A stretch of DNA of 64,000 bases from Actinomycetota bacterium (GTDB lineage Bacteria > Actinomycetota > JAHEXW01), in NCBI GenBank assembly GCA_041658625.1, contig JBAZZW010000002.1, forward strand, positions 538,851-602,850, given 5' to 3'. Below the pieces are notes generated by a model. The model was not told the origin of the DNA. It worked only from the letters and a program-made list of their open reading frames with translations, and did no database searches. How positions within the stretch are numbered: the stretch's first letter is position 1; every line of letters begins with the position of its first letter. Both the position numbers and the translations under genes were made by a program. Shown one piece after another: positions 1,066 to 59,988 of this stretch.

Positions 1066-1715
1066 TGGGCGGCTCCTGTCGATGAACCGCCTGCGCTAGT
1101 CGCGGCGCCTTGAGCCGATCCTGTCTCCCCTGTAGTTCCGCTGGGGGCGGCGGTTTTCGCGCCGGTAACGCCGGGGGAAATTATATATGCGTTGGCTTTT
1201 ACCGTTACCTCGATGTTCGGCAACTTAGCCTTGCCTTCCTTGACGTCGATACCGGTTACGTTGATAATCCGCTGTAGCTTCTCCAGTCTGTAGATGAAGT
1301 CAAGGAGCGAGAAGAAGTATCCGTCTATCTGCATTTCCATCGTCACTTCTTTAAAGTCCGTCTTCTGGACCGGATTCGAAGGTTTAATCGATAACAGCGC
1401 GATACCGGATTTTACTGAGACATCTTCAATCTGGACGAGCAAGGCCGGTAGTTCCGCGCCGCTTTCCGGTGCCTTCTTGTCCAAGCGCAAGAGTTCGTTG
1501 TCGGTTTTGCGGCTGGCTTTCTTGAGCTCTTCCAGTTGGCTGTATGTAGCCTTTGAGCTGTTTAGCTCGGTCATCGCCGACTGTTCCTCGACTCCCAGCG
1601 TTCCCAGCCGTAGTATCTGCGGAACAACAAAGAAACCGATAAACAAGAGCAGTATCGCCGCTAAGATTACACCGATCAATGCTATTTGTTGTTTTGGAGT
1701 CAGCTTAAAACTCAT
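1062..1715 (-). CDS. pilO: type IV pilus assembly protein PilO-like
   Basis: 217 aa; N-terminal TM helix, coiled-coil, periplasmic domain; 4-nt overlap with pilN-like gene. Confidence 0.65.
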   Translation of the reverse strand: MSFKLTPKQQIALIGVILAAILLLFIGFFVVPQILRLGTLGVEEQSAMTELNSSKATYSQLEELKKASRKTDNELLRLDKKAPESGAELPALLVQIEDVSVKSGIALLSIKPSNPVQKTDFKEVTMEMQIDGYFFSLLDFIYRLEKLQRIINVTGIDVKEGKAKLPNIEVTVKANAYIISPGVTGAKTAAPSGTTGETGSAQGAATSAGGSSTGAAQ

Positions 1716-2380
1716 GGCGTCGCCTTGTTTGTGGTCGAGGTTTCTTTGAACTTGGTCAAATAAACCGTCGTCTGAAACTCAATGACCTTTACCGGCTGCG
1801 CGGCCACGGCCGTAGGCGCGGACGTGGTTTCAGCAGCCAGCGTCTGTTCCGTCGCATAATCCAGCCATACGCCCCGGAACTGGTTAATTTCGTTCAAATG
1901 AACCAGCCATCTCGCGACCGCCGCGTGGTTAAACGCGTAACCGATGATCGTAATCGGAGGCTTGGGCGCGGTTTTCGCCGCGGCGCCGGAAGCTTCCTTA
2001 GCTGTCAGAATCTCGCCCAGGTCCACCTTGACGCTCTTTAACCAGATGTCGTTTGGCACGACCATGCTGATATCGTTCAGGATGCTCGACCATTGAACCT
2101 GGTTCTCGGTCATCTTTACGATAATCGCCTGGCGTTCGTCCAAGGCCTTCTTTCTATCCTGGTACGGCTTTAACTTCTCTGTATATTGCTGAACTTTAAC
2201 GTTTTCGCTTTTGATTATATCGACGCGCTCGCTGGCCATCATGGCCTGGGCTAACGTGATTAAATATACCGCTAGGGCAACCCCGAAGACCGCGGCGAAG
2301 ACGATTCCCATGAGCGCGATAATCCGCCGCGATTTATGTTTCTCAACTACTTCAGGTGGGATTAGGTCTATGCGGGTCAT
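1712..2380 (-). CDS. pilN: type IV pilus assembly protein PilN-like
   Basis: 222 aa; N-terminus MTRIDLIPPE then single TM helix, typical PilN architecture; overlaps pilM stop. Confidence 0.7.
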   Translation of the reverse strand: MTRIDLIPPEVVEKHKSRRIIALMGIVFAAVFGVALAVYLITLAQAMMASERVDIIKSENVKVQQYTEKLKPYQDRKKALDERQAIIVKMTENQVQWSSILNDISMVVPNDIWLKSVKVDLGEILTAKEASGAAAKTAPKPPITIIGYAFNHAAVARWLVHLNEINQFRGVWLDYATEQTLAAETTSAPTAVAAQPVKVIEFQTTVYLTKFKETSTTNKATP

Positions 2381-3498
2381 TTCTCGGTCTCCCGTAACGC
2401 CAATCCTATCGGCACGGCCAACGCCGGCTCGATTTCCTGGAACTCGGTTTCAGTCAGCTGCATTTTCCCGACTTTCACGTTCTGTAGGGGCATGCCGTAC
2501 CTGACATTGATCTGCAAGGCTTTTTCCAGTTCGTCTCGTAGCCCGCCGATCTTCGCCCCACGCCCGCTAAGGACGATTGATTCCGGCGGCTTGCACCCTG
2601 TCTGGTCCAAACAGTAGTCTATGGACCGGCGGATTTCCCTGACAAACGATGCGATCCGGTTGCGCAGAATCTCCTGGGCCGCTTCTTTCTTCTCCAGCGA
2701 AGGCTTGGGAATCGCGGGGTTTTCGCTTTCCGCTAGCGAAATCTTCAACTCCTCCGCTTCTTCCTCGGTGATATTCATGTTATCGGCCAGGGCTCTCGTA
2801 AAGTCGTTCCCGCCGAACAGAAGAATTCTGACGAAGTATGGCAGACCTTCCTCGACGATAATCATGTTGCTGACGCCTGCGCCGATGTTCAACAAGCAAG
2901 ACGTTTCCAGAGCTTCCTTGGCTTGTTCGTCGGATGGAAAAGCCGGCAGACGCGGAATCAACGAGCGCATAAGCGCGAATGATTTGACATCTATGGAGGC
3001 CGGGTACAGACCGGCGCCCGACAATGCTTCCACAAACGATTGGATCATTTCCCTCTGCGCTGCGACCAAGAGCACTTTGATGTTTTTCTCGTCCTCTTTG
3101 ACTTGATATTCCTTAAGGATCTCGAAATCGATAATGGTTTCTTCCACCGGCATCGGGATGTAGTCGGCTGCCTGGAATTTGATCGCGCCCTTGAGCTCTT
3201 CATCGCTCATTTGCGGCATATCGATAACGCGCACGATTACTTTTTGGTTGGCCACGCCGAGGACGATGTTCTGTTTCGGGAACTTGTTCTTAGCCCAAAG
3301 GTCTTTGAGGATGGCCGAAACCGCTTTGGCGTCGGCTATTTCGCCGTCGACAACCAGGTTTTCGGGAATGCGGACGATTCCGACCTTGTCTAATACCGGC
3401 GGTTGCTTGCCTGTTTGAATCTCCACCACGCGAATCGACCTGGTCCCTATGTCAAGACCTATGGCCTGCGTCGGTTTGCCTAATGAGAAAAGCGCCAC
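2377..3498 (-). CDS. pilM: type IV pilus assembly ATPase-like protein PilM (actin-like fold)
   Basis: 373 aa; N-terminal IGLDIGTRSIRVVE sugar-kinase/actin-like motif, PilM-like length. Confidence 0.85.
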   Translation of the reverse strand: MALFSLGKPTQAIGLDIGTRSIRVVEIQTGKQPPVLDKVGIVRIPENLVVDGEIADAKAVSAILKDLWAKNKFPKQNIVLGVANQKVIVRVIDMPQMSDEELKGAIKFQAADYIPMPVEETIIDFEILKEYQVKEDEKNIKVLLVAAQREMIQSFVEALSGAGLYPASIDVKSFALMRSLIPRLPAFPSDEQAKEALETSCLLNIGAGVSNMIIVEEGLPYFVRILLFGGNDFTRALADNMNITEEEAEELKISLAESENPAIPKPSLEKKEAAQEILRNRIASFVREIRRSIDYCLDQTGCKPPESIVLSGRGAKIGGLRDELEKALQINVRYGMPLQNVKVGKMQLTETEFQEIEPALAVPIGLALRETEK

Positions 3499-3499
3499 G

Positions 3500-3682
3500 T
3501 TAACCTCCGCGGGCTGCGTTTGATTCTTTGGAGAGATACTTGTTGACGGCTAGGGATTTAATACGGTAGCCGCGACCGACGCGAACTGCCGGAAGCTGCC
3601 CCACTTTGATTAGCCGGTAGACCGTCATCTTTGAAACACGAAGATGTGTCGCGACCTCAGATACCGTCATCAGCGTCTTCAT
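3500..3682 (-). CDS. excisionase-family helix-turn-helix DNA-binding protein
   Basis: 60 aa; LMTVSEVATHLRVSKMTVYRLIKVGQLPAVRVGRGYRI matches HTH_17/excisionase-type domain; 2 nt upstream of pilM. Confidence 0.6.
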   Translation of the reverse strand: MKTLMTVSEVATHLRVSKMTVYRLIKVGQLPAVRVGRGYRIKSLAVNKYLSKESNAARGG

Positions 3683-3736
3683 TAAGCCACCTCATGTGTA
3701 TTGCCTGCTCAAGCTACACTTAGGAATATTATCACT

Positions 3737-3817
3737 AGTTAACATTAGTTGTCAATCGTTACCAGTTCTTAACAACTGTATTACCTCGTTAACACGAGTT
3801 AACATCAGTAACATCGG
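3737..3817. promoter_or_regulatory. cluster of GTTAACA direct repeats (three copies at 10-bp spacing) upstream of HTH-pilMNOP operon
   Basis: GTTAAC at 3738, 3788 and 3798, GTAACA at 3809, plus GTTACC/TTAACA variants; sits 55-135 bp upstream of the 3682 start codon. Confidence 0.35.
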
Positions 3818-4126
3818 GCAATGCAAGTGAACACTTTAGTGTTTTCTTGGTTTTTTTATGAGCATTGCGGGGACGCCATATTAGATAGTAAGAGCTAAAT
3901 TCTTTCCAGCGGCCGGTTACCGCTGACCGTTGTCTGATTATTCTTCTCTTAGAATATTCGACAGGGCTTCCGTTGGCTGCATGGTGGTTCTTGAATTGGT
4001 CTATAAAGCTTTCATTCGCACCTGGTAACCTTTGCATCCTTCGTCTTCGAGTTTAGGTTCGAGCATCCCTTTCAGTTTTCAGATGCGGAGGGCTCACAGT
4101 CTCTTCAAACTTGGCATATTGCCTGG

Positions 4127-4591
4127 TTAGCTGCCTGTTGGATAAACCTTTATCCGGCCGATGCTTGTGGTTCTGATTACCATAGAGCGCTTGTTGACGA
4201 GCGCAGAGAACAAAAGCGGCACCCGTGCCCGACTCTCCACCTCAACATATACTTCAGTGTTAACAACTTTGACGTCTAACAGCTCCGCACCGCACAAACC
4301 ATCCAGGTTCTTCTCTACCCATTCCATGGCATCTTCATCGGAGGCATAGTTGTTTCGCGACCCGGATTCCGCCGCCTCACGTAGATCGATTTCCTCAGCA
4401 ACCTCACGCGCCGCGACGTCACTTGCCTTATATAGTTCCGCCTTAGCCGCCATCACCCGCCCGGCATCAATGCTCCACCCCATAAACAACAAAACCACCG
4501 GCATTATCGCCACAATCAAAACCGTAATTGACCCTTCTTGTGGCTTATGTTCTAAGTTCGTTCTCTTTTTACATGCATCAATTATTTTCAT
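4127..4591 (-). CDS. TadE/TadG-like pilus assembly (pseudopilin-like) protein
   Basis: 154 aa; N-terminal GSITVLIVAIMPVVLLFMGWSIDAGR...AAREVA resembles the TadE-like N-terminal domain. Confidence 0.45.
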   Translation of the reverse strand: MKIIDACKKRTNLEHKPQEGSITVLIVAIMPVVLLFMGWSIDAGRVMAAKAELYKASDVAAREVAEEIDLREAAESGSRNNYASDEDAMEWVEKNLDGLCGAELLDVKVVNTEVYVEVESRARVPLLFSALVNKRSMVIRTTSIGRIKVYPTGS

Positions 4592-4610
4592 TTTACGTCC
4601 ATGATTTTAC

Positions 4611-4634
4611 GGACACATTCCCGGGAATGTGTCC
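4611..4634. promoter_or_regulatory. 24-bp perfect palindrome GGACACATTCCCGGGAATGTGTCC (copy 1), between arsR-like gene and TadE-like gene
   Basis: Read directly; identical to copy 2 at 5041..5064; candidate operator or RNA hairpin. Confidence 0.5.
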
Positions 4635-4639
4635 GTCGA

Positions 4640-5038
4640 CTAATGGAGATATTTCCTAAAGAGACTGCTAAGGTTGCCTAGCATCACGTCCGTGACCACC
4701 CGACTGTCTTTGTCTTCTATTTCTCTGTTAAAGGAGTGTATTACAAGAAATAGCAGCATTTCATTCCTTAACGACAATCTGACCTTGCGAACTCTATAAT
4801 AGATAAACGATCCCCTGTTTCTATAGGTAACAAATCCGGCTTTGTTCAGGTCGCTTAGATTCCGCGAAACTGTTTTAACAGGCCACCCGCCCCGAATGCT
4901 GATTTCACCAACAGTTAGCGGTCCTGTATTGTTGAGCATTTCAAGTATCTCCAAACGTTTTCTGAAGCCAAGGACTTTGAAAATATTCGCCAAATCATCA
5001 AGTTCGTTCTTCTTTGTCATTTTCTCCTTTGCAAACAT
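4640..5038 (-). CDS. ArsR/SmtB-family transcriptional regulator
   Basis: 132 aa; winged-HTH LEILEMLNNTGPLTVGEISIRGGWPVKTVSRNLSDLNKAGFV; alternative start at ATG 5020 with AGGAG RBS. Confidence 0.8.
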   Translation of the reverse strand: MFAKEKMTKKNELDDLANIFKVLGFRKRLEILEMLNNTGPLTVGEISIRGGWPVKTVSRNLSDLNKAGFVTYRNRGSFIYYRVRKVRLSLRNEMLLFLVIHSFNREIEDKDSRVVTDVMLGNLSSLFRKYLH

Positions 5039-5040
5039 CA

Positions 5041-5064
5041 GGACACATTCCCGGGAATGTGTCC
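5041..5064. promoter_or_regulatory. 24-bp perfect palindrome GGACACATTCCCGGGAATGTGTCC (copy 2), immediately upstream of arsR-like gene
   Basis: Read directly; exact duplicate of 4611..4634. Confidence 0.5.
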
Positions 5065-5070
5065 TTACTT

Positions 5071-5835
5071 TTAAAAACTTACACTTCCGGTGTCTTGGAG
5101 AGAACGTGCAAAAGGCAGTTCGGGGGCCTTCTGCCCGGTTTCATTTATGTTTACGCCACGGAATGAGTTAATCGGGATTTCAAAATAAACAGTTGCCGTT
5201 GAGCCGTCTATCGCGGTGATTTGGACATAGTGCGTGCCTTGACCGCCGAAATCATATTCGCCCCTGGCTGTTATGTTGTTTGATAGTTGCGGATCCGTGA
5301 ATTGTCCAGTCGCCAGCGTAACCGTGTAATGCGATCCGTTTCGATCCTGCCGCCCGACAACAGCGTACACTCGATAAGACTGGATTGGTTTGTTTGCGGA
5401 GAACGCGATATTTAGGTCTAGGTGGGCCGGTTCGTCATTTTGACTCTGCCGGCGCCCGTCTTCTGTTAAATAATGCCAGCGGGTAAAAACATACGGTGGC
5501 GACTTTGCCACAGAAACCGTCACCTGCAACGGTTCTGCCCAATACCCGCTGGCCGCCCACTCTTGATAGGTCTGCCAATATCCGCTTGCAACCCAGGTTG
5601 AATATGGCGCCCAAGCCCAGTAGCTTGTGTCCACCCACGTCCAGTAGCTCTTATCGTGCCATTGCCACCAAGCCCCGACCCAGCCGGCACCAGGGCAATA
5701 CACGTCGCTTCGATGCTTATGATACCCCCATGCATAAGCGAAATACATCGGCCCCCAATTCATGCCAATTAGGGAGTCATCCTGAGGAGCAGAAGAGATG
5801 ACTGGCGACGAGGGAACTCTCACGATTCTACTCAT
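5071..5835 (-). CDS. hypothetical protein with Trp/Tyr-rich repeats (SYW/GYW every ~8 residues) and a C-terminal beta-rich domain
   Basis: 254-aa longest ORF in the region; unusual composition; no family recognised. Confidence 0.4.
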   Translation of the reverse strand: MSRIVRVPSSPVISSAPQDDSLIGMNWGPMYFAYAWGYHKHRSDVYCPGAGWVGAWWQWHDKSYWTWVDTSYWAWAPYSTWVASGYWQTYQEWAASGYWAEPLQVTVSVAKSPPYVFTRWHYLTEDGRRQSQNDEPAHLDLNIAFSANKPIQSYRVYAVVGRQDRNGSHYTVTLATGQFTDPQLSNNITARGEYDFGGQGTHYVQITAIDGSTATVYFEIPINSFRGVNINETGQKAPELPFARSLQDTGSVSF

Positions 5836-6200
5836 TCAGCCACAATCGTGCCTTGAGAATCGCTGGACAGTGAGGCAATCGCTTATAGAATCATCCGAAT
5901 GCTTGCCGACAAGTTTAATCCGATGTTGGCTCCCCGGGTTGTATGTTTTTCGCACATTCCGAGCTTGCATAAGACAAACCGAGGTCGTCTTCGACGCATC
6001 TACGAAAAAGCATATCCTTAAAAATGCCAATTGCTGCTTCGTCAAAATACACGTTTTCACACCTTCTGCCCGATGCTGGGCAAGGAGGCAATAAAGAACT
6101 TGGACGCATTGATAAAAGAGAATAGCGAGAAATGCCTGGACGTTGCCTCATAGTAATTGGCTGCAAAATCGACAAACAGAACTTACATAATAATGCGAGG

Positions 6201-8945
6201 CTACTTGGGCGGTTTAGCTGCTTTCAGTCGTTGTACGGCCCACTCGTTTGAAAGATCAAGCGATTGGTTTAGCTCGAACGAGGTGTCAGCTCGTTTCTTC
6301 TCAGCATTTCGAACTTCTTTGACGGAATCGTAGAACTGTTTGCCAATCAGACGTTGTTTCTCAATTGGAATTACCGGTACTGGTATTGCTCCAAGATCAT
6401 CCCATTCAACGCGGTGTCTACTAATACCTGTGGATTGAGATAAAAGGCGGGCTCGGACTTCGGGGCTTCGAAGAAATCCCCATAAAAACCAAACATCGAA
6501 TCTTGCGTCCTTAAGTCGCATAATAGTAAACTCCGACGAGGCAATTACACCCGAGAGGTCAGCAGGAATCACGGCAATGGAACCGAGGGCAGCAGCAATG
6601 TTGCTTGCTACAATATCATTTTCTTTTGGGTTTTGAACTTTACTATATGTAAGTTCTTCTCCGAGCGCCTTATCGCCTTCCTCGGGGATTCCGTCATATC
6701 GAACACGCAGTAATGTGTTTAGTTTGCTAGGCTCGTTTTTCGGATTGAAGCCCTCATTTTCAATCTTGTCGACTATTGTGTGTAGGGGAACAACATTAAG
6801 GCCATCGGCACGCCATTTGTCAGAAATGTCATTTGGGCGGGGGAGACACGACTTAACATCAAGACGATCTCCAATAAGGCCGCTCCTGACCCGCCAAGGG
6901 CCCTTTATCCCCTGCATAAAAAGATTAAAAGCCTCAAAAAGGTCCCTAGTTTCGTCTTCAGCTGCGGTACGAGCTTCAGCTGCTTTACTAGGCCGTGTCT
7001 TCATGGGCACATCATCAAGGCCTACGTAGCGACATTCATACATAAAGGCATCCGGCTGACTTTGCTTTTTCGCGTCCCGCCGAATGAGGTATAGGACCGA
7101 TGTCTTTGCACGAGCTCCAACACGTTGAAATGCGTCCCCAGGGATACTGATTACGGCACGAACTATAAAGCGATCCCTTATAAAATCTCGTGCGAAACGA
7201 TTATTTGAGGAACTCAAGATTGAGTCGTCAATTACAGTTACGAGTTTACCGCCTGGCTTAAGAATGTCTGCATATCGTTCTAAGAACATAATGCTCGACT
7301 TTAATGATGGGCGTTGTCTATTTGTTTTCCCAAAGCCAAAGGTCCTTAGAGCGTACTGGTTGAGAATTAAAGCCTCGTCTGGCAGCGTCTCTGAGTAATC
7401 CATCGAGAATGGTGGATTTGTTAGAACGATATCGAAACCTCGTCTGCTTCCATTTGATATTTCGAAAATAAGTTTCTGAAGCTCTTCGAGCTCAAAACGC
7501 GATTGCTGATCATCTCCGACACCATGAGACACTGTCTTATCAAGGCTGTCCGCCGCATATATCCGGCTACCGCCGTCTCCATGGAGATACATGTTGATTC
7601 GTGAAATCTTTGCTAATGGTGGTTCTTTACCTGCATCAATGCCAAATATGGAATCGTTGGCGACCCTTTCTAACAAGGCGTTTTGTTCGCTGTCGCTCAG
7701 AGAAGTGTTAGATCGAATTTGATTCCGCATGTCGGTGAGGGCTTCAATAAGGAAGCCTCCTGAACCACAACAGGCATCAATTACATGGTCAATATGGTCT
7801 TTTGATGCAATTGGGGCAGCGAGTTGTTCCATCATTTTTACAATAGACCTGGGTGTAAAGTATTGCCCCAAGGCTTGTCCCCGCATGGTGGCACTTAAGA
7901 ACGTCTCAAACAAACGACCGTTAAGGTCCTCATCAATGCTGTACAAATCAAGTGATTCTAGTTTCGAGACAACTTGTCTGATTGTTCCTATCTGGAGTTC
8001 AATATGGTCATTTGGCCCAAATATCGGTTTCTTCTTTCCTCGGGCAACGTCCTCTCTAAGAACTTCATTAAGCCTGGCAAAAAGGGTCTCATCAACTGGA
8101 TTCTTTACCCCCTGTGACTGCAGAGCATCAATCCAATGCGTTGAGAAGATAACATTGTCCCGTGGTATTGGTTTCTCGTCTCGTAGTAAAGGCCCCATTA
8201 TGGGGTCATCGTGTAGTTTTCGATCCTCCCAAAGCTTTACGAACATTATTTTTACGAACTCAAAGAAAGCAGGTTGAGGATTCATCTTCTCAGCTTTCCA
8301 TATAAGTCTATGACAGCTGTTAAAAACCCTTTTGATCTCCTCAACAGAAGGCTTTTTCATTAGAAAGCGTGGCTTTTGTATCGAAGGCTTCAGGCCTTGC
8401 CTAATAGTAGTAGCCTGAAGTAACGAGCGTACCGAAAAGAAGCTTATGTTGTCATCAGCAAAGTCGGAAAATTCCAGGCTGATTATAGGCTTGCTCTCAT
8501 CCCATTTATAAAGGTCAAATGCGAGACCATTAGTTATTACGTAGTATGAACAGGGGTTTTGATTGCTAAACTCTTGATTAAGCCCTAACGCATATCCAGC
8601 ACCTTGAAAAGCCCACTTGTCGATATCTTCCCCTGGTGATTTTGCATCGATTAGCCACATAGGCTTCTCGTTACAGTAGATGACGTAATCTGGCCTATAG
8701 CCTTCTTTTTTTCTGCCTCTGGCTACAACAATCTCTTTAAGAGATACCTTTGGCCGGATTTCAGAGTCTTTGTAGCCGAGATCCTTTAGCAAACGATTTA
8801 TAAAGAATGTCTCGACTGAAGACTCATCAACTAAAACCGCTTTATCACAGTATTTGTTTGACTTCGCGTCCTTGCCAGCGCGACTCAAAGAGTCTAGGAG
8901 CGTAGGGCGAAGTAGGTCACTTTGCGGGGTTTTTGACTGTTTCAT
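6201..8945 (-). CDS. single-chain restriction-modification enzyme: PD-(D/E)xK nuclease + gamma-class N6-adenine methyltransferase + HsdS-like target-recognition domain (Type IIG-like)
   Basis: 914 aa; N-terminal RPDYVIYCNE...WLIDAKSPGE nuclease core; MTase motif I VIDACCGSGGFL then motif IV NPPF; C-terminal IPVPVIPIEKQRLI typical of HsdS TRD ends. Confidence 0.75.
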   Translation of the reverse strand: MKQSKTPQSDLLRPTLLDSLSRAGKDAKSNKYCDKAVLVDESSVETFFINRLLKDLGYKDSEIRPKVSLKEIVVARGRKKEGYRPDYVIYCNEKPMWLIDAKSPGEDIDKWAFQGAGYALGLNQEFSNQNPCSYYVITNGLAFDLYKWDESKPIISLEFSDFADDNISFFSVRSLLQATTIRQGLKPSIQKPRFLMKKPSVEEIKRVFNSCHRLIWKAEKMNPQPAFFEFVKIMFVKLWEDRKLHDDPIMGPLLRDEKPIPRDNVIFSTHWIDALQSQGVKNPVDETLFARLNEVLREDVARGKKKPIFGPNDHIELQIGTIRQVVSKLESLDLYSIDEDLNGRLFETFLSATMRGQALGQYFTPRSIVKMMEQLAAPIASKDHIDHVIDACCGSGGFLIEALTDMRNQIRSNTSLSDSEQNALLERVANDSIFGIDAGKEPPLAKISRINMYLHGDGGSRIYAADSLDKTVSHGVGDDQQSRFELEELQKLIFEISNGSRRGFDIVLTNPPFSMDYSETLPDEALILNQYALRTFGFGKTNRQRPSLKSSIMFLERYADILKPGGKLVTVIDDSILSSSNNRFARDFIRDRFIVRAVISIPGDAFQRVGARAKTSVLYLIRRDAKKQSQPDAFMYECRYVGLDDVPMKTRPSKAAEARTAAEDETRDLFEAFNLFMQGIKGPWRVRSGLIGDRLDVKSCLPRPNDISDKWRADGLNVVPLHTIVDKIENEGFNPKNEPSKLNTLLRVRYDGIPEEGDKALGEELTYSKVQNPKENDIVASNIAAALGSIAVIPADLSGVIASSEFTIMRLKDARFDVWFLWGFLRSPEVRARLLSQSTGISRHRVEWDDLGAIPVPVIPIEKQRLIGKQFYDSVKEVRNAEKKRADTSFELNQSLDLSNEWAVQRLKAAKPPK

Positions 8946-9354
8946 GTGTTCATTATCATTTGACGGAAGAACTGCGTCAAGGTTCGGCCAAACACTGTCC
9001 TATATAGCGGTCAAGTGACAGACAACTAGACAACCCATTGCTAGGCGCATTGTTCATAGAAAAGGTCAGCCAAGTAAGTTATTTAATTTCTATCTAATAA
9101 GCCATGGCAAAACCTCATCACTCTTCGGTAATCATAGAGAATGTTCGAAGACGCTCCGGCGGCCGCTGTCGCGTCACTGTAAAGTGTCAACAGAAACGGG
9201 GGAACTCCAACTCCAGTTTGTTGTTTATTGTAGCCGAGTGGGCTACGAGTCTTCTTCAAAAGAATATTCCATATACATAGCGTTTCCTCAGCTCTTGAGG
9301 TTTAGCACTTGAAAGTACATAATGAACCTAATCTTGTCTACTGGGGAGTTAATT

Positions 9355-11817
9355 ATGCCTTTGAAGATTAAGCTTAAGAATCAGTTTCGTGAGCCCCTCA
9401 ATACGGATGCGGGTTTCGTCGGTCGTGAAGACGAATTGGCGCGACTCATTACGATATTTCAGCAGAGGCAAGCCGCAACAGTCCTAGTCGCTGGACATCG
9501 AGGGGTAGGCAAGAGCGCACTGGTTGACGAGGCCTTAAAACGCTCGCAAGCCGACAAGAAAAAGCGCGTAGTTGCTCGATTGACGTTGCCCCATCTATCG
9601 CCCGGTAGTTCGGATATTCGAGATCAAATACTTCAATCGCTGGCGCGCTCGCTATATTTCTCTATCAAAGACGACAATAGCGTTCCAAAACCTCTTCGCG
9701 AAGTCAGCAAGGTTCTATATGATAAGACCTATTTGAAGGAACTACACGAGCAGACTGGGGTCGAGTCATTATTCGAAACCGAAGCTAAAGCCCGATCAGC
9801 GACAAAGACAAAGACTTCAATCGCTTTTGGCAAGATAGTTTCACTTATTGTCGGAACGTCGCTCTCTGGTGTGGTTGCTATCGGAGGAATCGCGGTTATT
9901 TCGAGAATCGTTACGGATCATGGCCTGAGTTGGGGAATAGTGGCTAGCGCTGTCGTGTTGGTTACGGTTGTGCTTTCAGCTTATCAACTTAATCTCGAAA
10001 AAGAGGATGAGAATACGACTATTGACAAGGCAACGGCTTCTAACAAGATAAACCGAATCGGTCTTTACGACGTATCTCCCGAGACCCTTGAATTTGAGCT
10101 TCGCGATCTTATAAAGGAGCTTGCAGCTAAAGGTCATCCTTGTGTCTTCGTGATTGACGAACTTGATAAGCTAGAGGCTTTTCCCAAAGGCGTTCAGCAG
10201 GACCCTGAAAGCGCTGGGCAGGATTTTAAAAAACACATCATATTCAGGATTTTGTCCAGTTTGAAAAACTTCTTTACATTGGGTTCTGGAATATTTGTGT
10301 TTATTTCAGGGGAAGATTTCTACGCCCAACTAAATGGACCCATTGAAACAGACATCTATTCGTTAGCTCATACCTTGTTCACTGATCAGGTTTTTGTTCA
10401 GGTTCTCTACTATCAGGACGTGGAGCGCTTGATTGAGCAGATTATTGCCGAAACGCCTGCGGACGAGGAGGAGTACCATCGCTTCAGGAACTATTTGTGT
10501 TGGCGCTCTCGAAATCATGTGTTTGATCTCTTATCACTCATCGGGGAATTTGTCAGATTTGATAATCGAGGCCAGCCATTTCTTTGGGGAGAGAAATCAG
10601 GAGCTCAGGACGGGCATTGGCATGAAGGCAATCTACCGACGAACTGGGAAGTTGCTGCTGCTCTGCAGAAAATAGTGGGGGCCGCTTATGATGAATCGGC
10701 GAGGCCGTCTGCTGGAGAGCAGCGTTTCAATCAAGCATTGTGGCTTACCCAACTGCGAACGGCCTATGATCTGTTCGCTGATATGCCCGTGAAGGTGCCA
10801 GAGGCTGGTTTTGAGTTGCCTGCTGCTTATGCCTGGGTAAAGAATCTAACGCCAAACGATCTTGATGACCTTGCTGGCGCAGTCGAGCGTCTGCTGGCTA
10901 AACTTGAGAGGTATGGTGCGGTAAGAGTAGTCTCGGAGACACTCACTCCCGAGACAGAAGGCCAGCCCGATGTCTCTGTGACTAGCTATACACTAGTTGA
11001 AAACCCACCTTATCCGCCCACGTCAGTCAACTCTGAAGTACAAAGAATCCCACTTGAGGATTATTATCTCGATATCGGGGCGAAAGCGGAGCACCTCGCA
11101 AAGAATCTATCCGTCTTGGGCATTGAGACACCGCAGTTATCCGATGAAATCAACGCTGTCGTCGATCTAATACTCGCAGTCAAGAACATTTCGCCACGAA
11201 ACACAGTACCGAGAAGCAGGGTCAAAGAAGGAATTAAACGAGCAGACGTTCTTGCCGAACAGATGGTCGAGACCGGCGTTAATGCAGTTATTACAAAATG
11301 GGCGGCGGATCACGGGATGCAGCTTAGTCAGGCACTTTCAGAAATTGAAAACAAAACTGGCACGCCCTGGCAAGACTCGCTTACCAGTGAGTTCCCAGAG
11401 TTTGTTGAGGCTTTGGACATAAGCGAGGTTGAATACTTCATCATCGGAGGTTCAACTTCCGAGAACCAGGTTTTAGTGCTGAATAATCGACGAGATCGTG
11501 ATTTGACGGCAGTAAGCGAGGCTTATTCAAAATCCTTGCCTGGTGAAAAGGGTCGCGATAGACGGAAACAACGTCTTCCGATAGTTGTAGTGAGCCAGTT
11601 GTCTCCCGGCAAAAATCCTCAGATTCCACGCGAAGTCGTTGAGGTTATCCAAGAAACCGAAGGTTGGTCTTTCTTCTCTGCCGTACTTGGACTTTTACCG
11701 AAAACGAAGAGAGTCAAAACGAATCTGGCAGGATGGACTGTCTTTTCTCTCGATCCTAGCTTGGATAATTTGGAAGACCTACCAGCTGAACTAGAAACGG
11801 TCTCATACATTACATAG
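9355..11817 (+). CDS. KAP-family-like P-loop NTPase with two TM helices inserted between Walker A and Walker B; ~550-aa uncharacterised C-terminal region
   Basis: Walker A VLVAGHRGVGKSAL (about 9484-9510), two hydrophobic helices (about 9814-9997), Walker B CVFVIDELDKLE (about 10135-10170). Start taken at ATG 9355 (GGGGAG RBS) rather than track start 9322. Confidence 0.65.
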   Translation: MPLKIKLKNQFREPLNTDAGFVGREDELARLITIFQQRQAATVLVAGHRGVGKSALVDEALKRSQADKKKRVVARLTLPHLSPGSSDIRDQILQSLARSLYFSIKDDNSVPKPLREVSKVLYDKTYLKELHEQTGVESLFETEAKARSATKTKTSIAFGKIVSLIVGTSLSGVVAIGGIAVISRIVTDHGLSWGIVASAVVLVTVVLSAYQLNLEKEDENTTIDKATASNKINRIGLYDVSPETLEFELRDLIKELAAKGHPCVFVIDELDKLEAFPKGVQQDPESAGQDFKKHIIFRILSSLKNFFTLGSGIFVFISGEDFYAQLNGPIETDIYSLAHTLFTDQVFVQVLYYQDVERLIEQIIAETPADEEEYHRFRNYLCWRSRNHVFDLLSLIGEFVRFDNRGQPFLWGEKSGAQDGHWHEGNLPTNWEVAAALQKIVGAAYDESARPSAGEQRFNQALWLTQLRTAYDLFADMPVKVPEAGFELPAAYAWVKNLTPNDLDDLAGAVERLLAKLERYGAVRVVSETLTPETEGQPDVSVTSYTLVENPPYPPTSVNSEVQRIPLEDYYLDIGAKAEHLAKNLSVLGIETPQLSDEINAVVDLILAVKNISPRNTVPRSRVKEGIKRADVLAEQMVETGVNAVITKWAADHGMQLSQALSEIENKTGTPWQDSLTSEFPEFVEALDISEVEYFIIGGSTSENQVLVLNNRRDRDLTAVSEAYSKSLPGEKGRDRRKQRLPIVVVSQLSPGKNPQIPREVVEVIQETEGWSFFSAVLGLLPKTKRVKTNLAGWTVFSLDPSLDNLEDLPAELETVSYIT

Positions 11818-11994
11818 CTATGTTGCCTAGCATTCTTACAACAGATTTCGAAACAGCAATGAAAACTATCGAGTGCATCTAATGTTCATCGAATAAGTCA
11901 CCGCAAAACTCCGCTACTCCTCGTTAATCACAGAGTACTCTCTTTAAAGACAATCCGCAGACAAGGACAGCCATCGGGTGATATAGTAATACAT

Positions 11995-12059
11995 TGTTGG
12001 TTGCGCTGGAGGGACTACGAATCCGTAGGTTGGAGGTTCGGCTCCTCTCGGGCGCGCCA
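11995..12059 (+). other. tRNA-like 3' fragment (T-arm-like GGAGG-TTCGGCT-CCTCT, acceptor-like CGGGCGC, G, CCA); no matching 5' acceptor strand
   Basis: Read directly; antisense ORF 11924..12130 translates to the RSRTSNLRIRSP-type peptide typical of tRNA-derived DNA. Possible degenerate tRNA or integration-site remnant. Confidence 0.25.
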
Positions 12060-12161
12060 CATCTCACCTGGGCAACAGATGATGATTTCTTTAATTGACA
12101 AGGTATTATCTGGGGCAATCTAATACTCATCTAATATTGATTGTCGCCGACAAGGAAGGCA

Positions 12162-13028
12162 ATGATATACAAAGGCTTGTACTCTCAGCGCAAGAAAATA
12201 AACCCTGATGAAGATGTTTTTTCATATTCGCTCCCTGCCCCAGTAAGAGCTGCAATATTTAATATTATTAAAAACACCAATCCGAATTGGTCATCTCACG
12301 GCAAAACCCGAAGGCCTTTAAAGGCCATTGTTAAGGATTTTTGTGAAAATCATTTATTTCACGGGATTACACCAAGAGCAGAAGACGCTTTTGCATCTGG
12401 GTACCAATACGCCGACCACCAACTTACCGATGACCTTAAGGCATGGATCCAAACGACTCCACAAGAATCTTTGTTTGATTTTATTGAAGTAGCAATTATT
12501 AATATGAGCGAGTCTAATTTAACGACGCTTGTTAAAGATATTAATGATTTGTTTCAAAGGGAAATGATTGGATTTGAGATTGTAAACGGAAACATTATTG
12601 ACAAGTCTGATGAATTCCTTCATCAAGAAGTTGTTCTGCAGCCAATTCTTGGGCTAAAAGCAGGAGGATTTGAAAAAGCCGAACAAGACTTCATGAAGGC
12701 ATTGCAGGAATATGCCCACAAAGATTATGCGGGAGCCCTTACAAGTGCTAATACTGCGCAGGAAAGCGTTATGAAGAGGATTCTTGGAGTCGAAAAAGGT
12801 GTGTCAAGTGATTTGGTTAAGACATTAGTTGAAAGGGGCATAATCCCTTCATATATGCAGAATAAAATGTTACTGCCCGTTTCGATAAGAAACAAAGATA
12901 GCGACGCACACGGCAGGCTTGATCCAATTGACGTCACGCCGGAACTAGCTCAATACGCGATTCATTGTGTCGGGGCTAATGTTGTGTTCTTGCTCAAAGT
13001 TACGAATATGGACGGCACCCAACAATAG
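12162..13028 (+). CDS. hypothetical protein with C-terminal HEPN-like Rx6H motif (candidate abortive-infection/RNase-type effector)
   Basis: ATG 12162 preceded by AAGGAAGG RBS (track start 12141 is TTG); C-terminal SIRNKDSDAHGRLD fits the HEPN Rx4-6H motif; AT-rich gene. Confidence 0.45.
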   Translation: MIYKGLYSQRKKINPDEDVFSYSLPAPVRAAIFNIIKNTNPNWSSHGKTRRPLKAIVKDFCENHLFHGITPRAEDAFASGYQYADHQLTDDLKAWIQTTPQESLFDFIEVAIINMSESNLTTLVKDINDLFQREMIGFEIVNGNIIDKSDEFLHQEVVLQPILGLKAGGFEKAEQDFMKALQEYAHKDYAGALTSANTAQESVMKRILGVEKGVSSDLVKTLVERGIIPSYMQNKMLLPVSIRNKDSDAHGRLDPIDVTPELAQYAIHCVGANVVFLLKVTNMDGTQQ

Positions 13029-13070
13029 CTGTTTATCGGTTTTGGGTTTCTCGTTTTTAGGAATAATTGC

Positions 13071-13118
13071 AACCAGACTCATAATCCGCGGCAAGTTCGA
13101 GTCCTGCTGTGTTCCCCA
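13071..13118 (+). other. second tRNA-like 3' fragment (CTCATAA loop-like segment, T-loop TTCGAGT, terminal CCCA); no 5' acceptor strand
   Basis: Read directly; GGCAAGTTCGAGTCCTGC resembles a T-arm; lies just downstream of the HEPN-motif gene. Confidence 0.25.
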
Positions 13119-13192
13119 AACAGGAGCTAATAAAAAGGCCGACTCCAATAAACAGACGTCTCTTCTCCTATTAGTTCATGTTTATCGCCTTG

Positions 13193-13591
13193 CTATTTCA
13201 AAGATCGCGCCCTTTGCGAGGCGACATATTCTTCTAGGTCGCTTTTCTGTACTCTCCACGACCCCGCTCCAGCGCCAATCCTGAAGCCTAGCAAGAGCTT
13301 CTTGTTTAGCATGTCGTAGACCTGCGCCTCAGAGAACCGCAACAGCTTGGCGACCTCGCTGACTGTCAGCAAACGATTAGGGTCAGCCATCTTGGCGGCT
13401 TCTTTTTCCGCCGCCTTTTCGTGATACTTTCTGGCGTCCTCGGCGTTAATGAACTTACGCCGGCCGAAGCGAGTGGTCCGGAATTCCCCGCGGCGCATCA
13501 TCTTGCGAACCGTGTTCGGCTCCATTTGTAAAATCTCCGCAACTTCCTCAACACTTATATATCCCGTTTTGTTAGACATATTCATGACCAC
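13193..13591 (-). CDS. DNA-binding protein with two tandem excisionase-type HTH domains
   Basis: 132 aa; YISVEEVAEILQMEPNTVRKMMRRGEF and LLTVSEVAKLLRFSEAQVYDMLNKK are both HTH_17-like. Confidence 0.6.
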   Translation of the reverse strand: MVMNMSNKTGYISVEEVAEILQMEPNTVRKMMRRGEFRTTRFGRRKFINAEDARKYHEKAAEKEAAKMADPNRLLTVSEVAKLLRFSEAQVYDMLNKKLLLGFRIGAGAGSWRVQKSDLEEYVASQRARSLK

Positions 13592-13650
13592 TTTCGTTTG
13601 CTTCAGTCTTCCGTTATCTTCATATATATCAACAATATATCATATTTCAT

Positions 13651-14472
13651 TTAACTTGTTACTAATCCGCCGTAGCCAACGACACTCGCCGTATCCATGC
13701 TGAAGTCGGCGCTGGTCGCGTACTTAATTAGCTCCGCCTTGGTGGCGCCCAGTTCTTTGGCCGCGTATAGCATGATCGCCACAGGTCCTACTCCGCACAT
13801 AGTGATGTCGTTTTCATAGACGGTCTGAAGCAGAAATTCCGGATCCAAGGCCAGAATCGCGTCTATCGCCAGCTTGTCCAATGATTCGGCAACCGATAAA
13901 GGCTCATAATGGGTGAAATCAGTCGATGCGACGATTAAGACGTCTTCTTTTTCCTGACGGATCGCCTCCGCGATGGCGTGCCCAACCTCCCGGTAGACGG
14001 TTATGTCAGGGAGTCCCTTAATAGCAACCGGCACGAAGGTAAAGTCATTACCGGTTATCACCTGCAGGAAGGGCAACTGAACTTCAACGGAATGCTCCAG
14101 CCGATGAGCGTCATAGCTGACTTTGATGTTCTTGCTGTTGGCCATCATACGCGCGGCCAGCGCTTCGTCTATGTCTGCGTTTCCCAGTGGGGTCTTCCAG
14201 GTCCCCGTGTCTTCGATTGAAATCGGGAAGCCGAACCCTGAGTGATTAGGCCCGATAACAATAAACCGTTTTGGAGGCTCGATCGCTCCATATACGCTGC
14301 CGGCAACCGGGCCGGAATATTCGTAACCCGCGTGAGGAACGACGATCCCTTTGGCTTTTACTTTCGACTCTCGCTCGGCTTGTGCCTTTAGAAGCTTCTT
14401 GACGTCCCTTGTCAGCCCTTCTTCGTAACCCAAGTAGAACAGTCCGGCCGCGTAAGGTGTCCGCTTATTCAT
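13651..14472 (-). CDS. AmmeMemoRadiSam system protein B (MEMO1-family)
   Basis: 273 aa; motifs VVPHAGYEYSG, HSVEVQLPFLQ, STDFTHY, CGVGP. Confidence 0.85.
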   Translation of the reverse strand: MNKRTPYAAGLFYLGYEEGLTRDVKKLLKAQAERESKVKAKGIVVPHAGYEYSGPVAGSVYGAIEPPKRFIVIGPNHSGFGFPISIEDTGTWKTPLGNADIDEALAARMMANSKNIKVSYDAHRLEHSVEVQLPFLQVITGNDFTFVPVAIKGLPDITVYREVGHAIAEAIRQEKEDVLIVASTDFTHYEPLSVAESLDKLAIDAILALDPEFLLQTVYENDITMCGVGPVAIMLYAAKELGATKAELIKYATSADFSMDTASVVGYGGLVTS

Positions 14473-17368: not shown

Positions 17369-17815
17369 TTAATTAAGTCTAGCGGCGTATTCCTCGAGGG
17401 TCATTATGTCGGTGAGACCGCGGACGACCCTGGCGAGCTTTTTATCCGCTGTTATAAGTCGGAGTCCTTCAAGGTCGGCTTGGGCGACGAAGTAGGCGTC
17501 ATAGACTGTTATGCCCGCCTGCATCGCTAACTCGATCGCTACGTGCAAAACATTTGAGTCAAATGCTATAGTTGGCAGGCCTTCGTCTTGAAGAGCTTGA
17601 ATCGCGCGATTAATCTCTCTTGGCTTGTCAATACTCGACCATCGCAAACCATTCGCGATTTCATAGAAAGAGAGCTCGGTAATAGCCGTTAGGATTCGGC
17701 CTTTGTTGATGGCCGCTTTAAGCCATAGGGCCTGATAAGAGTCTTCTTCCTCAAGGAACCATTTTATTAGTATGCTTGAATCCAAGAGAATAGGTGTGCT
17801 GCTTTTATTTGCCAA
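17369..17815 (-). CDS. vapC: PIN-domain toxin VapC-like
   Basis: 148 aa; N-terminal ILLDSSILI strand with conserved Asp, later acidic residues (DAYF, ITAD); overlaps upstream antitoxin by 11 nt. Confidence 0.7.
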   Translation of the reverse strand: MANKSSTPILLDSSILIKWFLEEEDSYQALWLKAAINKGRILTAITELSFYEIANGLRWSSIDKPREINRAIQALQDEGLPTIAFDSNVLHVAIELAMQAGITVYDAYFVAQADLEGLRLITADKKLARVVRGLTDIMTLEEYAARLN

Positions 17816-18471: not shown

Positions 18472-18933
18472 TTACCGGCGGGTTGTGCTTAGTGTTTTGT
18501 ATTCTTTTTGCGAGATGAGGCGGCGGGAGTGGGCTTCTTTGAGAATCCAGCGGGAGTCGTTGACTTCCAGGTCGGCGGACATTAGGTCTTCCCTCGCCCG
18601 CCGGTCGTCTGTGATAAGCGTGTATAGGTGGGTTAAGGCAAGAGCGGCGGAGTCGCGCTCGCCGGCGTGCATGAAATCGGTTTTGTATTCGGCAATCACG
18701 CGATCCTCGGCGGGGCTTACGTCAATTGTGCGGATCCTTCCGGCGGCGAGGTCGCGAGTGAAATCTTCTTTCCCGGGACCGAAGCCGTGGTACTCAAACT
18801 CTCGTTTGACCCGCTCGGCAACTGTTATGCCGCCTAATACGCGGTGGAGAATGTCAGGCCGGCCCAGATGGCAGTAGAACTTCATTAAGACGTCGGTATC
18901 GACGATATATCCGTTCTGAGTCATTTTACTCAA
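18472..18933 (-). CDS. PIN-like domain protein (putative nuclease/toxin)
   Basis: 153 aa; YIVDTDVLM N-terminal strand and GERDSAALALTH...LITDD acidic motifs. Confidence 0.45.
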   Translation of the reverse strand: MSKMTQNGYIVDTDVLMKFYCHLGRPDILHRVLGGITVAERVKREFEYHGFGPGKEDFTRDLAAGRIRTIDVSPAEDRVIAEYKTDFMHAGERDSAALALTHLYTLITDDRRAREDLMSADLEVNDSRWILKEAHSRRLISQKEYKTLSTTRR

Positions 18934-53745: not shown

Positions 53746-53845
53746 GTTTCACAGTATATTCACAAACGGTTCACGGGATATTCTTGTGAGCCCTTGATAA
53801 TGGGCATTAGAGGTAGCCAAGGCTACCCCGCCCATCAGACAAAAG

Positions 53846-53886
53846 AAAAAGAGCAGGATAACAGACCACCTGCTCTTTTTCTTTTA
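53846..53886 (+). terminator. rho-independent terminator candidate after UbiA-family gene
   Basis: AAAAAGAGCAGG / CCTGCTCTTTTT inverted repeat with 12-nt loop, followed by CTTTT. Confidence 0.5.
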
Positions 53887-53955
53887 GCTGAAACTCCTAC
53901 TATGATACAATCATTACAAACATTTCGACCTTACCCGAATATCGAGAGACGGCAA

Positions 53956-56172: not shown

Positions 56173-56175
56173 CTA

Positions 56176-56838
56176 TTACTTTCGTACTTTTCGTGCAACA
56201 ATGCAGGCTACAGCTTGGACATAGCCATTTGAAACAGAATCAATATCGAGCAAGTCTGTTTTTGTTGCCGGAATCCAGTGGAGCCTTTCTAGGCCTTTAA
56301 AATACTTTTCTTTTTCTATTGTGAATCCATCAAGCAACGATACCAGCGCTTCATCGTCATATACTCTATACCAACTTGATTGCATCCTTCTCCCAAACGG
56401 GATAGTCAGAATGAACATACCATCGTTTGTTAAAACTCGGCTTATCTCTTGAACTACCTTAAAGTCACCATTGCTAAGAGGCTCTTCTCCATAGGCGCCA
56501 AGTCCGCAGTGCTCAATTGCTGAAACTGCACTTACAACGTCGAAAGAACCGCTTTGAAAGGAGTCTTTCAGAAAATCGCCTTTTACGAATTCGAAGTTTG
56601 GATGCTTAAGATCGTAATCTGTTAAGTCAACTCCTACTACTCTATGCCCCAGACTTGCTAGTTCAATAGGAAGTCGGCTTCTAGCGCAACCAAAGTCAAG
56701 AATCCGCAATTCCTGATTGCTCGGAATATTTTGAAAAACGAATGGAATCTCGACAATTCTTTCATTTGTAAGAAGTTGATCTGAAGGACCATCGTAATAT
56801 ATTGACTCTTCAAAAAGGGATTTTAGGTCTTTATCCAT
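56176..56838 (-). CDS. class I SAM-dependent methyltransferase
   Basis: 220 aa; motif I ILDFGCARSRLPIELASLGHRVVGVD. Confidence 0.75.
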   Translation of the reverse strand: MDKDLKSLFEESIYYDGPSDQLLTNERIVEIPFVFQNIPSNQELRILDFGCARSRLPIELASLGHRVVGVDLTDYDLKHPNFEFVKGDFLKDSFQSGSFDVVSAVSAIEHCGLGAYGEEPLSNGDFKVVQEISRVLTNDGMFILTIPFGRRMQSSWYRVYDDEALVSLLDGFTIEKEKYFKGLERLHWIPATKTDLLDIDSVSNGYVQAVACIVARKVRK

Positions 56839-56958
56839 GCTCCAAACTTAATATAGCAAACAGTGGCTGTCAACATAGCTTGTAAGAAATGTTACTTTTA
56901 TGGATAATTGAAAGTAATTTCATGTCAGCGCGTTGATCTCTTTATTTGGGTATGTTCA

Positions 56959-59355: not shown

Positions 59356-59392
59356 AAACTCACCGGTATTTAAAAGCCAAGTTCTCTTGTTG

Positions 59393-59402
59393 CCCCCCCC
59401 CC
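59393..59402. repeat. homopolymeric C10 tract about 40 bp upstream of the hicB -10 box (TATAAT at 59441..59446)
   Basis: Read directly; a second tract C8T8 at 59889..59904 follows hicA. Confidence 0.6.
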
Positions 59403-59453
59403 GTTCTCTGATTTTGGTGTTCTTATCTGCTGTCTTCTGATATAATAACGACT

Positions 59454-59864: not shown

Positions 59865-59988
59865 AAACATACCCTCTCCACTCAAGAACCCCCCCCTTTT
59901 TTTTGAGCTCGCAAAATATTCTTCGAGCGAGCGCTAATTACGAGCTTGCCCTGAGCTAGTCGAAGGGTCGAGAAGGGAGGGCGCCGCT

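Follow-up and report, generated by a model that had tools for sequence, protein, structure and literature searches.

A predicted defence island in place of a Tad pilus operon core carries a rare KAP-like NTPase that recurs near restriction-modification genes

The described defences closest to the locus considered here are single-gene NTPases of the KAP type and HEPN proteins of the AbiJ type. Among the former, tmn is reportedly the transmembrane KAP NTPase of Gao et al. 2020, and the inserted hairpin of two helices described for it is a hallmark of KAP NTPases. Both tmn and EF_KAP are single-gene defences that depend on their Walker B motif (for EF_KAP, PMC12632615), EF_KAP being a KAP NTPase fused to uncharacterised effector regions (PMC12632615), and PifA is another single-gene defence of the KAP type. 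The family that joins an AbiJ-NTD4 domain to an AbiJ HEPN domain (prototype CBY_0614) was described in 2013, with a sensor/antitoxin-plus-RNase logic proposed for it (PMC3710099). Here we compare with these systems a 64,000-nucleotide stretch of an Actinomycetota bacterium genome (contig JBAZZW010000002.1, positions 538,851 to 602,850; hereafter the window), in which a restriction-modification (R-M) enzyme, a membrane-anchored AAA_16/KAP-like NTPase and an AbiJ-family protein (modules 1, 2 and 3) are encoded side by side. Of the DNA at 4127-13591 that an earlier reading of the letters (the sequence-only reading) had proposed as an accessory island, we think it probable that ~5836-13192 arrived by horizontal transfer and is a mosaic, non-self-mobile defence island that takes the place of the core of a tad pilus operon, with three modules that are most likely independent and layered and with tRNA-like fragments that are att scars. 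Taken as a whole, the island is genuine but fairly ordinary, its R-M enzyme and AbiJ protein being of known kinds; the NTPase, as far as its sequence can tell, appears to be a fresh variation on the KAP/AAA+ single-gene defence theme, with an unclassifiable C-terminal half and a notable association with R-M genes. The chief interest of the locus is this rare, uncharacterised NTPase family, recurring beside or inside R-M operons.

Evaluating composition in 500-nt sliding windows, we found a GC of 0.41-0.48 across ~6000-13000 and of 0.51-0.57 in the flanks, such that 5836-13192 averages 45.1% and the remainder of the 64-kb window 52.4%. GC at third codon positions (GC3) was 0.42 for the R-M gene, 0.46 for the NTPase gene and 0.39 for the AbiJ gene, and 0.52-0.68 for pilM, MEMO, comM and the double HTH_17 gene, with dprA at 0.47. 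The two profiles together bear out the lower-GC stretch that had been noticed by eye between housekeeping blocks.

Scanning with the MEMO protein, one genome per species, we found two relatives, likewise Actinomycetota MAGs, L013 (64% identity) and L032 (63%), that share comM-dprA-MEMO with the window. After MEMO both carry a full Tad/Flp pilus (tad) operon, which runs through TadE, a TadZ/CpaE-like ATPase, a double HTH_17 protein, CpaB/RcpC, TadA (T2SSE) and TadB plus TadC (T2SSF), and then ends with two small or unknown genes, a W-rich protein of 376-381 aa and a TadG-like gene. Queries from this operon gave no tblastx match to tadA, tadB/tadC or cpaB anywhere in the window, where the tad members left are the double HTH_17 gene, the C-terminal two-thirds of the 381-aa protein and the TadG-like gene. 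The R-M/NTPase/AbiJ block, for its part, is missing at the locus in these two nearest relatives, and by this sequence comparison the island appears to occupy the place that the tad operon core (cpaB-tadA-tadB-tadC and neighbours) holds in them. Composition, absence from the relatives at the locus and matches to defence models together agree with what had been proposed, namely a horizontally acquired accessory island of defence-type genes. One could instead take the whole stretch for native housekeeping DNA whose lower GC is ordinary local variation, given that the tract at 5836-13192 is not the sole one (a glycosyltransferase cluster at ~54-60 kb is even lower in GC) and that the Tad-like, 254-aa and HTH genes of 4127-13591 are indeed native. 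We regard this as scarcely credible, however, seeing that the three central genes are absent at the locus from both relatives, which have tad genes there, belong to defence families, have homologues scattered over unrelated taxa and mobile contexts, and have a GC3 of 0.39-0.46 against 0.52-0.68 in most neighbouring core genes.

Because the genes at both ends of 4127-13591 are native remnants of the tad locus, the acquired DNA is ~5836-13192 (~7.4 kb), and the wider limits first drawn do not hold; the three outer genes (Tad-like, 254-aa and double HTH_17) have near-host GC (0.50-0.52) and are conserved in the relatives at the tad locus. The protein encoded at 4127-4591 is 42% identical to the TadG-like protein whose gene closes the tad operon in L013 and L032, and its gene is a conserved tad-locus remnant rather than island DNA. 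The 254-aa protein aligns with the C-terminal 225 aa of its L013/L032 homologues at 45-47% identity, lacks their N-terminal ~125 aa, hydrophobic leader included, and has no match in Pfam, NCBIfam or PADLOC (here and below, the 2023 set of PADLOC models); the island's left junction lies directly upstream of its gene. On the right, the double HTH_17 protein shares 78-80% identity with its counterparts between tadZ and cpaB (L013 12507-12989, L032 12510-12992), more than MEMO does (63-64%), and it is a conserved, core tad-locus regulator. The excisionase-type role once given to the HTH genes was accordingly rejected, both for this gene, conserved within the relatives' tad operon, and for a 60-aa HTH_17 gene that abuts pilM by 2 nt. 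The double HTH_17 gene has outlasted the loss of the tad genes around it, and this survival suggests that it does more than regulate the pilus. The overwriting of a surface-appendage operon neatly illustrates how defence islands are placed, and the regulatory and terminal tad remnants show how naive island boundaries mislead.

The left junction had no tblastx match to L013 or L032, a Pfam domain scan found no integrase domain in any open reading frame (ORF) of 3400-13800, and a repeat search found no direct repeat bracketing 5836-13192. The only significant repeat is a pair of 24-nt palindromes around the ArsR gene, so that the idea of an island bracketed by repeats falls away. Three other public contigs with the locus are 100% identical to the window. 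The genes named at the outset (ArsR, a 914-aa R-M-S enzyme, a divergent P-loop NTPase, a HEPN-motif protein and HTH_17 genes) are all present where they had been placed (Table 1).

Table 1. Features at and around the island, with positions counted from the first letter of the window.
Feature	Position	Strand	Details
HTH_17 protein, 60 aa	3500-3682	-	
Tad-like pseudopilin gene, 154 aa	4127..4591	-	Pfam Tad 7e-9; GC 0.50
ArsR/SmtB-family regulator gene, 132 aa	4640-5038	-	Pfam HTH_5 6e-9; NCBIfam HTH_metalloreg 57.9 bits (cut-off 55)
5'-truncated gene, 254 aa, W/Y-rich	5071..5835	-	Copy of the 376-381-aa tad-locus protein
Left junction	5836..6200		Non-coding or decayed; GC drops to 0.47; only short overlapping ORFs
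Single-chain type IIG/IIB-like R-M-S enzyme, 914 aa	6201..8945	-	Pfam and PADLOC domains, motifs
Divergent intergenic region, R-M gene / NTPase gene	8946..9354		
Membrane-anchored AAA_16/KAP-like NTPase, 820 aa	9355..11817	+	ORF opens at 9322 (831 aa)
Fragment 1, tRNA-Arg(ACG)-like 3' part	12010..12059	+	CUACGAA anticodon loop, T arm, acceptor 3' strand, CCA
AbiJ-family protein, 288 aa from Met 12162	12162..13028	+	ORF opens at 12141 (295 aa)
Fragment 2, tRNA(CAU)-like 3' part	13073..13118	+	CUCAUAA loop, GTTCGAGTC T arm, shortened variable region, CCA
Double HTH_17 protein, 132 aa	13193..13591	-	Pfam HTH_17 x2, 1e-23; GC 0.52, GC3 0.65

For the R-M protein, Pfam gave HSDR_N_2 (residues 43-152), N6_Mtase (1e-28) and Eco57I, and PADLOC gave MTase_II (3e-49), REase_MTase_IIG (4e-22) and Specificity_I (6e-14 at residues 717-881, domain at ~717-896). 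Its nuclease motif PD-(D/E)xK is intact inside the HSDR_N_2 match (PD85...D100-A-K102), as are methyltransferase motifs I (DACCGSGG390) and IV (NPPF510), and the chain has a single target-recognition domain, with matches to S subunits in the PDB at residues 773-888. The closest solved chain, RM.BsaXI (8w0p; 2e-30 over residues 24-625), shares the order of an N-terminal PD-(D/E)xK nuclease followed by a gamma-class N6-adenine methyltransferase; BsaXI has a separate S subunit, however, whereas in the window protein the recognition domain is fused at the C-terminus (717-896). AloI/CjeI-like R-M-S fusions differ in another way, as AloI-type enzymes carry two recognition domains and the window protein one. 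From its motifs and domains, the protein is thus predicted to be a type IIG-like enzyme with an N-terminal PD-(D/E)xK nuclease, a gamma-class N6-adenine methyltransferase and one recognition domain, and the single-chain R-M-S enzyme of the sequence-only reading stands, all three domains lying in one polypeptide. Membership of the MADS system was rejected, the only matches being MAD1-like (HTH_17) and MAD2-like at 183 vs 720 and 44 vs 80 bits (NCBIfam cut-offs); MAD6, MAD7 and MAD8, mandatory in the published model (10.1101/2023.03.30.534895), had no match in any island protein by PADLOC/NCBIfam. In the intergenic region shared with the NTPase gene, promoter-like hexamers point both ways (8980-8952 on the minus strand and 9295-9323 on the plus strand; consensus matches only), and a hairpin lies at 9228-9248, likewise a match of sequence only.

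The NTPase itself is best described by Pfam AAA_16 (1e-13), with KAP_NTPase marginal at 22.3 bits against a cut-off of 20. Across its family the KAP_NTPase model was found in 14 of 34 members, and AAA_16/ATPase_2 score better than KAP. An alignment of these 34 sequences revealed that Walker A (G47-x-R-G-x-G-K53) and Walker B (D268-E269) are invariant, as are numerous residues of the C-terminal half. Between the two Walker motifs, at ~156-215, lie two hydrophobic helices that are kept in 10 of the 11 relatives checked and form a hairpin in the structure model (helices H160-189 and H191-209). The core is ORC/Cdc6-like AAA+, RdrA being a neighbour at the level of fold only, and the C-terminal region of ~450 aa is conserved, confidently folded in the model and family-specific, with no fold match for the C-terminal half among solved structures. 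Like tmn, the protein is a P-loop NTPase in which two transmembrane helices interrupt the stretch from Walker A to Walker B, and like both tmn and EF_KAP it is encoded by a single large gene, in a defence or mobile context, and has a long extra region that lacks any known domain. It differs from EF_KAP, whose helices are at the N-terminus rather than inserted (PMC12632615), and from both in a core that is nearer AAA_16/ATPase_2 than KAP and in its family-specific C-terminal region.

The NTPase family is rare: a word-indexed search of ~5.8 billion protein clusters gave 42 clusters, and an exhaustive search of 1.84 billion representatives at 50% identity gave 155 matches at E<=1e-30, of which ~20 are full length and most others share only the N-terminal ~400 residues. 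A metagenome scan with the NTPase alignment likewise returned mostly distant relatives sharing the N-terminal NTPase alone, and tblastn against 72,556 plasmids gave one weak match, in Priestia. A phage origin was considered and set aside, there being no relative in IMG/VR viral contigs. Neither the window protein nor its 34 relatives matched a PADLOC system, apart from weak P-loop matches to candidate PDC-S27; the tmn model was absent from their matches, one of the 34 relatives weakly matched PifA, and membership of tmn, RADAR (RdrA) or PifA was rejected, as the window protein had no PADLOC match to them. The defence-model scan thus recognised the R-M and AbiJ proteins and left the NTPase out. 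The claim that the KAP NTPase stood outside any canonical system survives in part, since KAP-type single-gene defence is established (tmn, EF_KAP, PifA) but this family itself fits no PADLOC system; what remains undescribed is possibly the family and its recurrent linkage to R-M genes. Among the distant relatives of the NTPase domain we also noted proteins of ~1,430 aa (L058, L060, L061, L064, L082, L086, L091 and others), which sit in a recurrent trio on one strand that encodes ~216, ~1,430 and ~100-180 aa.

Evaluating 11 neighbourhoods of the NTPase gene, the window included, we found an R-M system within 1-2 genes in 7 of them (a raw count), the types varying widely. The window has a type IIG enzyme beside the NTPase, L005 a type III system with GmrSD, L006/L007 a type I system, L008 a type I system with an integrase, and L038 a C5 methylase; in L010 and L108 the NTPase lies between hsdM and hsdS-hsdR, and in L037 its start overlaps the hsdS stop by 4 nt, with HEPN_Apea as a neighbour. 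Four neighbourhoods have no R-M system: L011, with a reverse transcriptase and NACHT; L012, with an integrase, a relaxase and an Mrr_N-domain protein, adjoining tRNA-Leu; and L039 and L107. More distant relatives have, directly upstream and in the same orientation, a gene for an N6_N4 methylase (L049, L050), HsdS (L051/L052) or type III Res (L043). No conserved partner gene of the NTPase emerged across the 11 neighbourhoods, and its homologues occur singly, in defence or mobile settings, which supports an autonomous NTPase; at the same time, these raw adjacency counts over varied R-M types support a real affinity of the family for R-M loci. The split type I loci (L010 4275-14833, L108 569-13620; EcoEI-type HsdR) have hsdM separated from hsdS-hsdR by 3-7 kb of cargo, which holds the NTPase homologue together with toxin-antitoxin genes, L108 having VapBC and L010 a PhdYeFM antitoxin, and both loci adjoin a uvrA paralogue.

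This linkage invites a different account of module 2, in which the NTPase would be an accessory or guard of the adjacent R-M enzyme in the manner of PrrC with EcoprrI, keeping watch on the R-M system or on DNA entering at the membrane and firing, or boosting restriction, when a phage blocks or evades restriction, and in which the R-M and NTPase genes would form one functional unit diverging from a shared control region. The frequency of R-M systems near the NTPase and the R-M components directly upstream in distant relatives speak for it, as do the finding that tmn, the most closely studied of the KAP defences, acts in synergy with PrrC and further sensory-ATPase systems and an earlier hypothesis that prokaryotic KAP NTPases regulate membrane complexes restricting foreign DNA (cited in PMC12632615). 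There is also a likeness to PrrC/RloC in that a gene containing the NTPase is found repeatedly inside or directly after R-M operons (L010/L108, L037, L051), a position that suggests a second line of defence behind restriction. Yet in PrrC a soluble ATPase of the ABC type carries a fused HEPN anticodon nuclease, whereas the window NTPase is AAA+/KAP-like, membrane-anchored and without a recognisable nuclease, and the HEPN domain belongs to another gene nearby, which is not a conserved neighbour. With partner R-M systems of types I, II, IIG and III, the NTPase is unlikely to guard one enzyme specifically; in four neighbourhoods an R-M system is absent altogether; R-M systems are the commonest inhabitants of defence islands, which makes the bare 7-of-11 adjacency weak evidence; and the two genes of the window are divergent, not co-transcribed. 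Because the partner types vary and the counts are raw, we rank the guard as a rival, and a rather unlikely one, to the reading of three independent modules.

A broader form of the same idea would make the 820-aa protein a member of an undescribed superfamily of membrane-anchored ORC/Cdc6-like (KAP-type) NTPases that are dedicated partners of R-M systems of any type, a generic second layer at the membrane that detects when restriction has failed or been blocked (or detects DNA at its point of entry) and exerts its effect via a novel C-terminal domain; we consider this doubtful and offer it tentatively. Were the R-M linkage functional, it would extend the PrrC idea of a back-up watching restriction to a membrane-bound, nuclease-less protein, and would give a handle on the role of KAP-type NTPases in immunity, obscure even for tmn.

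The HEPN-motif protein had been placed outside any named system, and here the comparison points elsewhere: it matched Pfam AbiJ_NTD4 (4e-16; 60 bits against a cut-off of 34), DUF7014 (2e-7) and Abi_C (6e-4, residues 248-286), as well as PADLOC PDC-S32 (1e-15), and by its sequence it is assigned to the already described family of AbiJ-NTD4 with a C-terminal HEPN domain (CBY_0614; PDC-S32). It shares with that family an identical two-domain architecture and an R-x6-H HEPN motif, R243-x6-H250 being invariant in three close homologues. Weaker matches were to NCBIfam STM4504/CBY_0614 (85.4 bits against a cut-off of 150) and to PADLOC AbiJ (E 0.0023, at the C-terminus only and with no stretch passing alone), and lactococcal AbiJ is only distantly related. 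The close clade amounts to three clusters in a word-indexed search of the 5.8-billion-cluster protein set. One homologue, 49% identical, occupies the end nearest tRNA-Ala in an element that has an integrase, HTH_17 and a small terminase (L035), and the other is beside a MerR and SIR2-like pair. The L035 element (1274-9067; integrase, HTH_17 and Terminase_4) also encodes an 821-aa family-less protein; the AbiJ homologue comes last, with 150 nt between it and an intact tRNA-Ala. The whole has the look of an element of the phage-satellite type in which AbiJ is cargo.

That the NTPase and the HEPN protein make up an undescribed two-gene anti-phage module, in which the NTPase would sense infection and activate an AbiJ-type RNase with the tRNA-like fragments as RNA decoys or antitoxins, now seems very unlikely. 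The two genes are adjacent on the same strand, 320 nt apart, a distant NTPase homologue (L037) has an unrelated HEPN_Apea gene alongside, and tmn co-occurs with HEPN systems such as PrrC. Against this pairing, none of the 10 other NTPase neighbourhoods has an AbiJ-family gene and neither of the two other AbiJ-clade homologues has the NTPase gene in its neighbourhood; AbiJ-NTD4 proteins, moreover, bear a presumed sensor domain of their own (PMC3710099). The RNA part fares no better, as the tRNA beside the L035 homologue is intact and on the opposite strand, so that no RNA partner is conserved, and the fragments are confined to this genome among 108 loci. A role for the fragments as functional RNA partners of AbiJ was rejected, the homologues lacking a conserved arrangement.

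The two tRNA-like 3' fragments of the sequence-only reading hold up as readable arm patterns at 12010-12059 and 13073-13118, but they gain no support from ARAGORN, which found no tRNA in the 64-kb window, or from Rfam, which gave nothing at gathering score and nothing at E<=5 over the region. Fragment 1, ~190 nt downstream of the NTPase gene, matched positions 26-71 of the Rfam tRNA model when cut out (5'-truncated, 17.8 bits, E 0.061 in a 53-nt search). Fragment 2, which follows the AbiJ gene at 45 nt and is separated from the double HTH_17 gene by 75 nt, had no Rfam tRNA match even alone, and nothing else but a 14-bit antisense match to the Plastid-ycf2 5'UTR model, which overlaps trnI-CAU. 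A pattern of anticodon arm, T arm and CCA occurs at exactly two sites on both strands of the 64 kb, these being the two fragments, while first-order Markov shuffles gave a mean of 0.16 and a P(>=2) of 0.01 for a pattern that was tuned after the fragments had been seen. The fragments resemble different tRNAs (ACG and CAU) and have no exact match in viral contigs. Because each follows a defence gene whose homologues adjoin intact tRNAs in integrase-bearing elements elsewhere, the NTPase homologue of L012 lying between an integrase and tRNA-Leu, we read them as probably decayed att-site scars, with fragment 2 probably marking the island's right edge. The locus is like tRNA-integrated islands in its lower GC, its defence cargo, its tRNA 3'-end-like sequences at the ends of modules and the intact tRNAs adjoined by homologous cargo elsewhere; it differs in being a pilus operon in relatives rather than a tRNA site, and it lacks an integrase, flanking direct repeats and, across the 64 kb, any intact tRNA.

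If the three modules are layered as we favour, the R-M enzyme would methylate host adenines at its target site, as its gamma-class methyltransferase and single recognition domain suggest, and its N-terminal PD-(D/E)xK nuclease would cut unmodified incoming DNA. The two-helix hairpin inserted in the P-loop domain may hold the NTPase at the inner face of the membrane, where an NTP-driven switch would control the conserved C-terminal region; that region, if tmn and EF_KAP are a guide, may sense infection, act against it or do both. The N-terminal domain of the AbiJ protein would silence its HEPN RNase until infection, upon which cleavage of RNA would abort the infection. Integrative elements targeting tRNA genes may have carried the NTPase and AbiJ genes before their assembly here, leaving the att scars behind.

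Several points weigh against this view. That the NTPase family is so often tightly linked to R-M genes makes it harder to regard modules 1 and 2 as fully independent. The functions of all the genes are drawn from sequence and analogy, and the mechanism of the NTPase is pure analogy because its C-terminal half has no recognisable effector fold; the protein fits no PADLOC system model beyond the P-loop stretch of PDC-S27. The relatives are distant (63-64% MEMO identity), so the loss of tad genes and the gain of the island could differ in time, and the same-species contigs, all identical, offer no presence/absence polymorphism to draw on. The tRNA-like fragments are statistically weak, the arm-pattern test having been devised after they were seen, and the island, with no integrase, intact tRNA or flanking direct repeat found at it, is therefore not itself a tRNA-integrated mobile element.

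The ArsR gene, which had been taken to control a module of the island, lies among remnants of the Tad operon and looks like a small insertion of its own. Its GC is 0.41-0.43, and two identical, perfect 24-nt palindromes (GGACACATTCCCGGGAATGTGTCC) at 4611-4634 and 5041-5064 bracket it exactly, the one 2 nt upstream of its start (5041-5064) and the other between its stop and the start of the Tad-like gene (4611-4634). The palindrome has these 2 copies and none elsewhere in the window, with 0 expected in shuffles. Neither L013 nor L032 has a counterpart of ArsR between the two flanking genes, which are 29 nt apart there. The gene is probably a separate small insertion with its own operators, and the palindromes are likely to be putative ArsR operators or else the ends of a small inserted cassette.

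Left of the Tad-like gene, a 444-nt AT-richer spacer (3683-4126) separates it from the pilM-linked HTH_17 gene, whose 60-aa product weakly matches a BldC-family model. The spacer coincides with a break in synteny, as plsY follows the TadG-like gene in the relatives, and an 82-aa ORF in it has no family match; a homologue of another gene 3' of the L032 tad locus lies at 18487-18831 of the window. Just beyond comM, a VapBC-type toxin-antitoxin pair (RHH and PIN; 17369-17815 together with the RHH gene listed beside it) adjoins yraN in a GC dip of 0.45-0.47. Near the window end, 61203-62453 encodes a 416-aa ATPase with AAA_14 and DUF4143, an architecture common in mobile or defence contexts. The deeper low-GC tract at ~53800-60000 (0.40-0.46) encodes multi-domain glycosyltransferases of 792 and 815 aa plus a methyltransferase, and is probably a variable cell-surface polysaccharide cluster.

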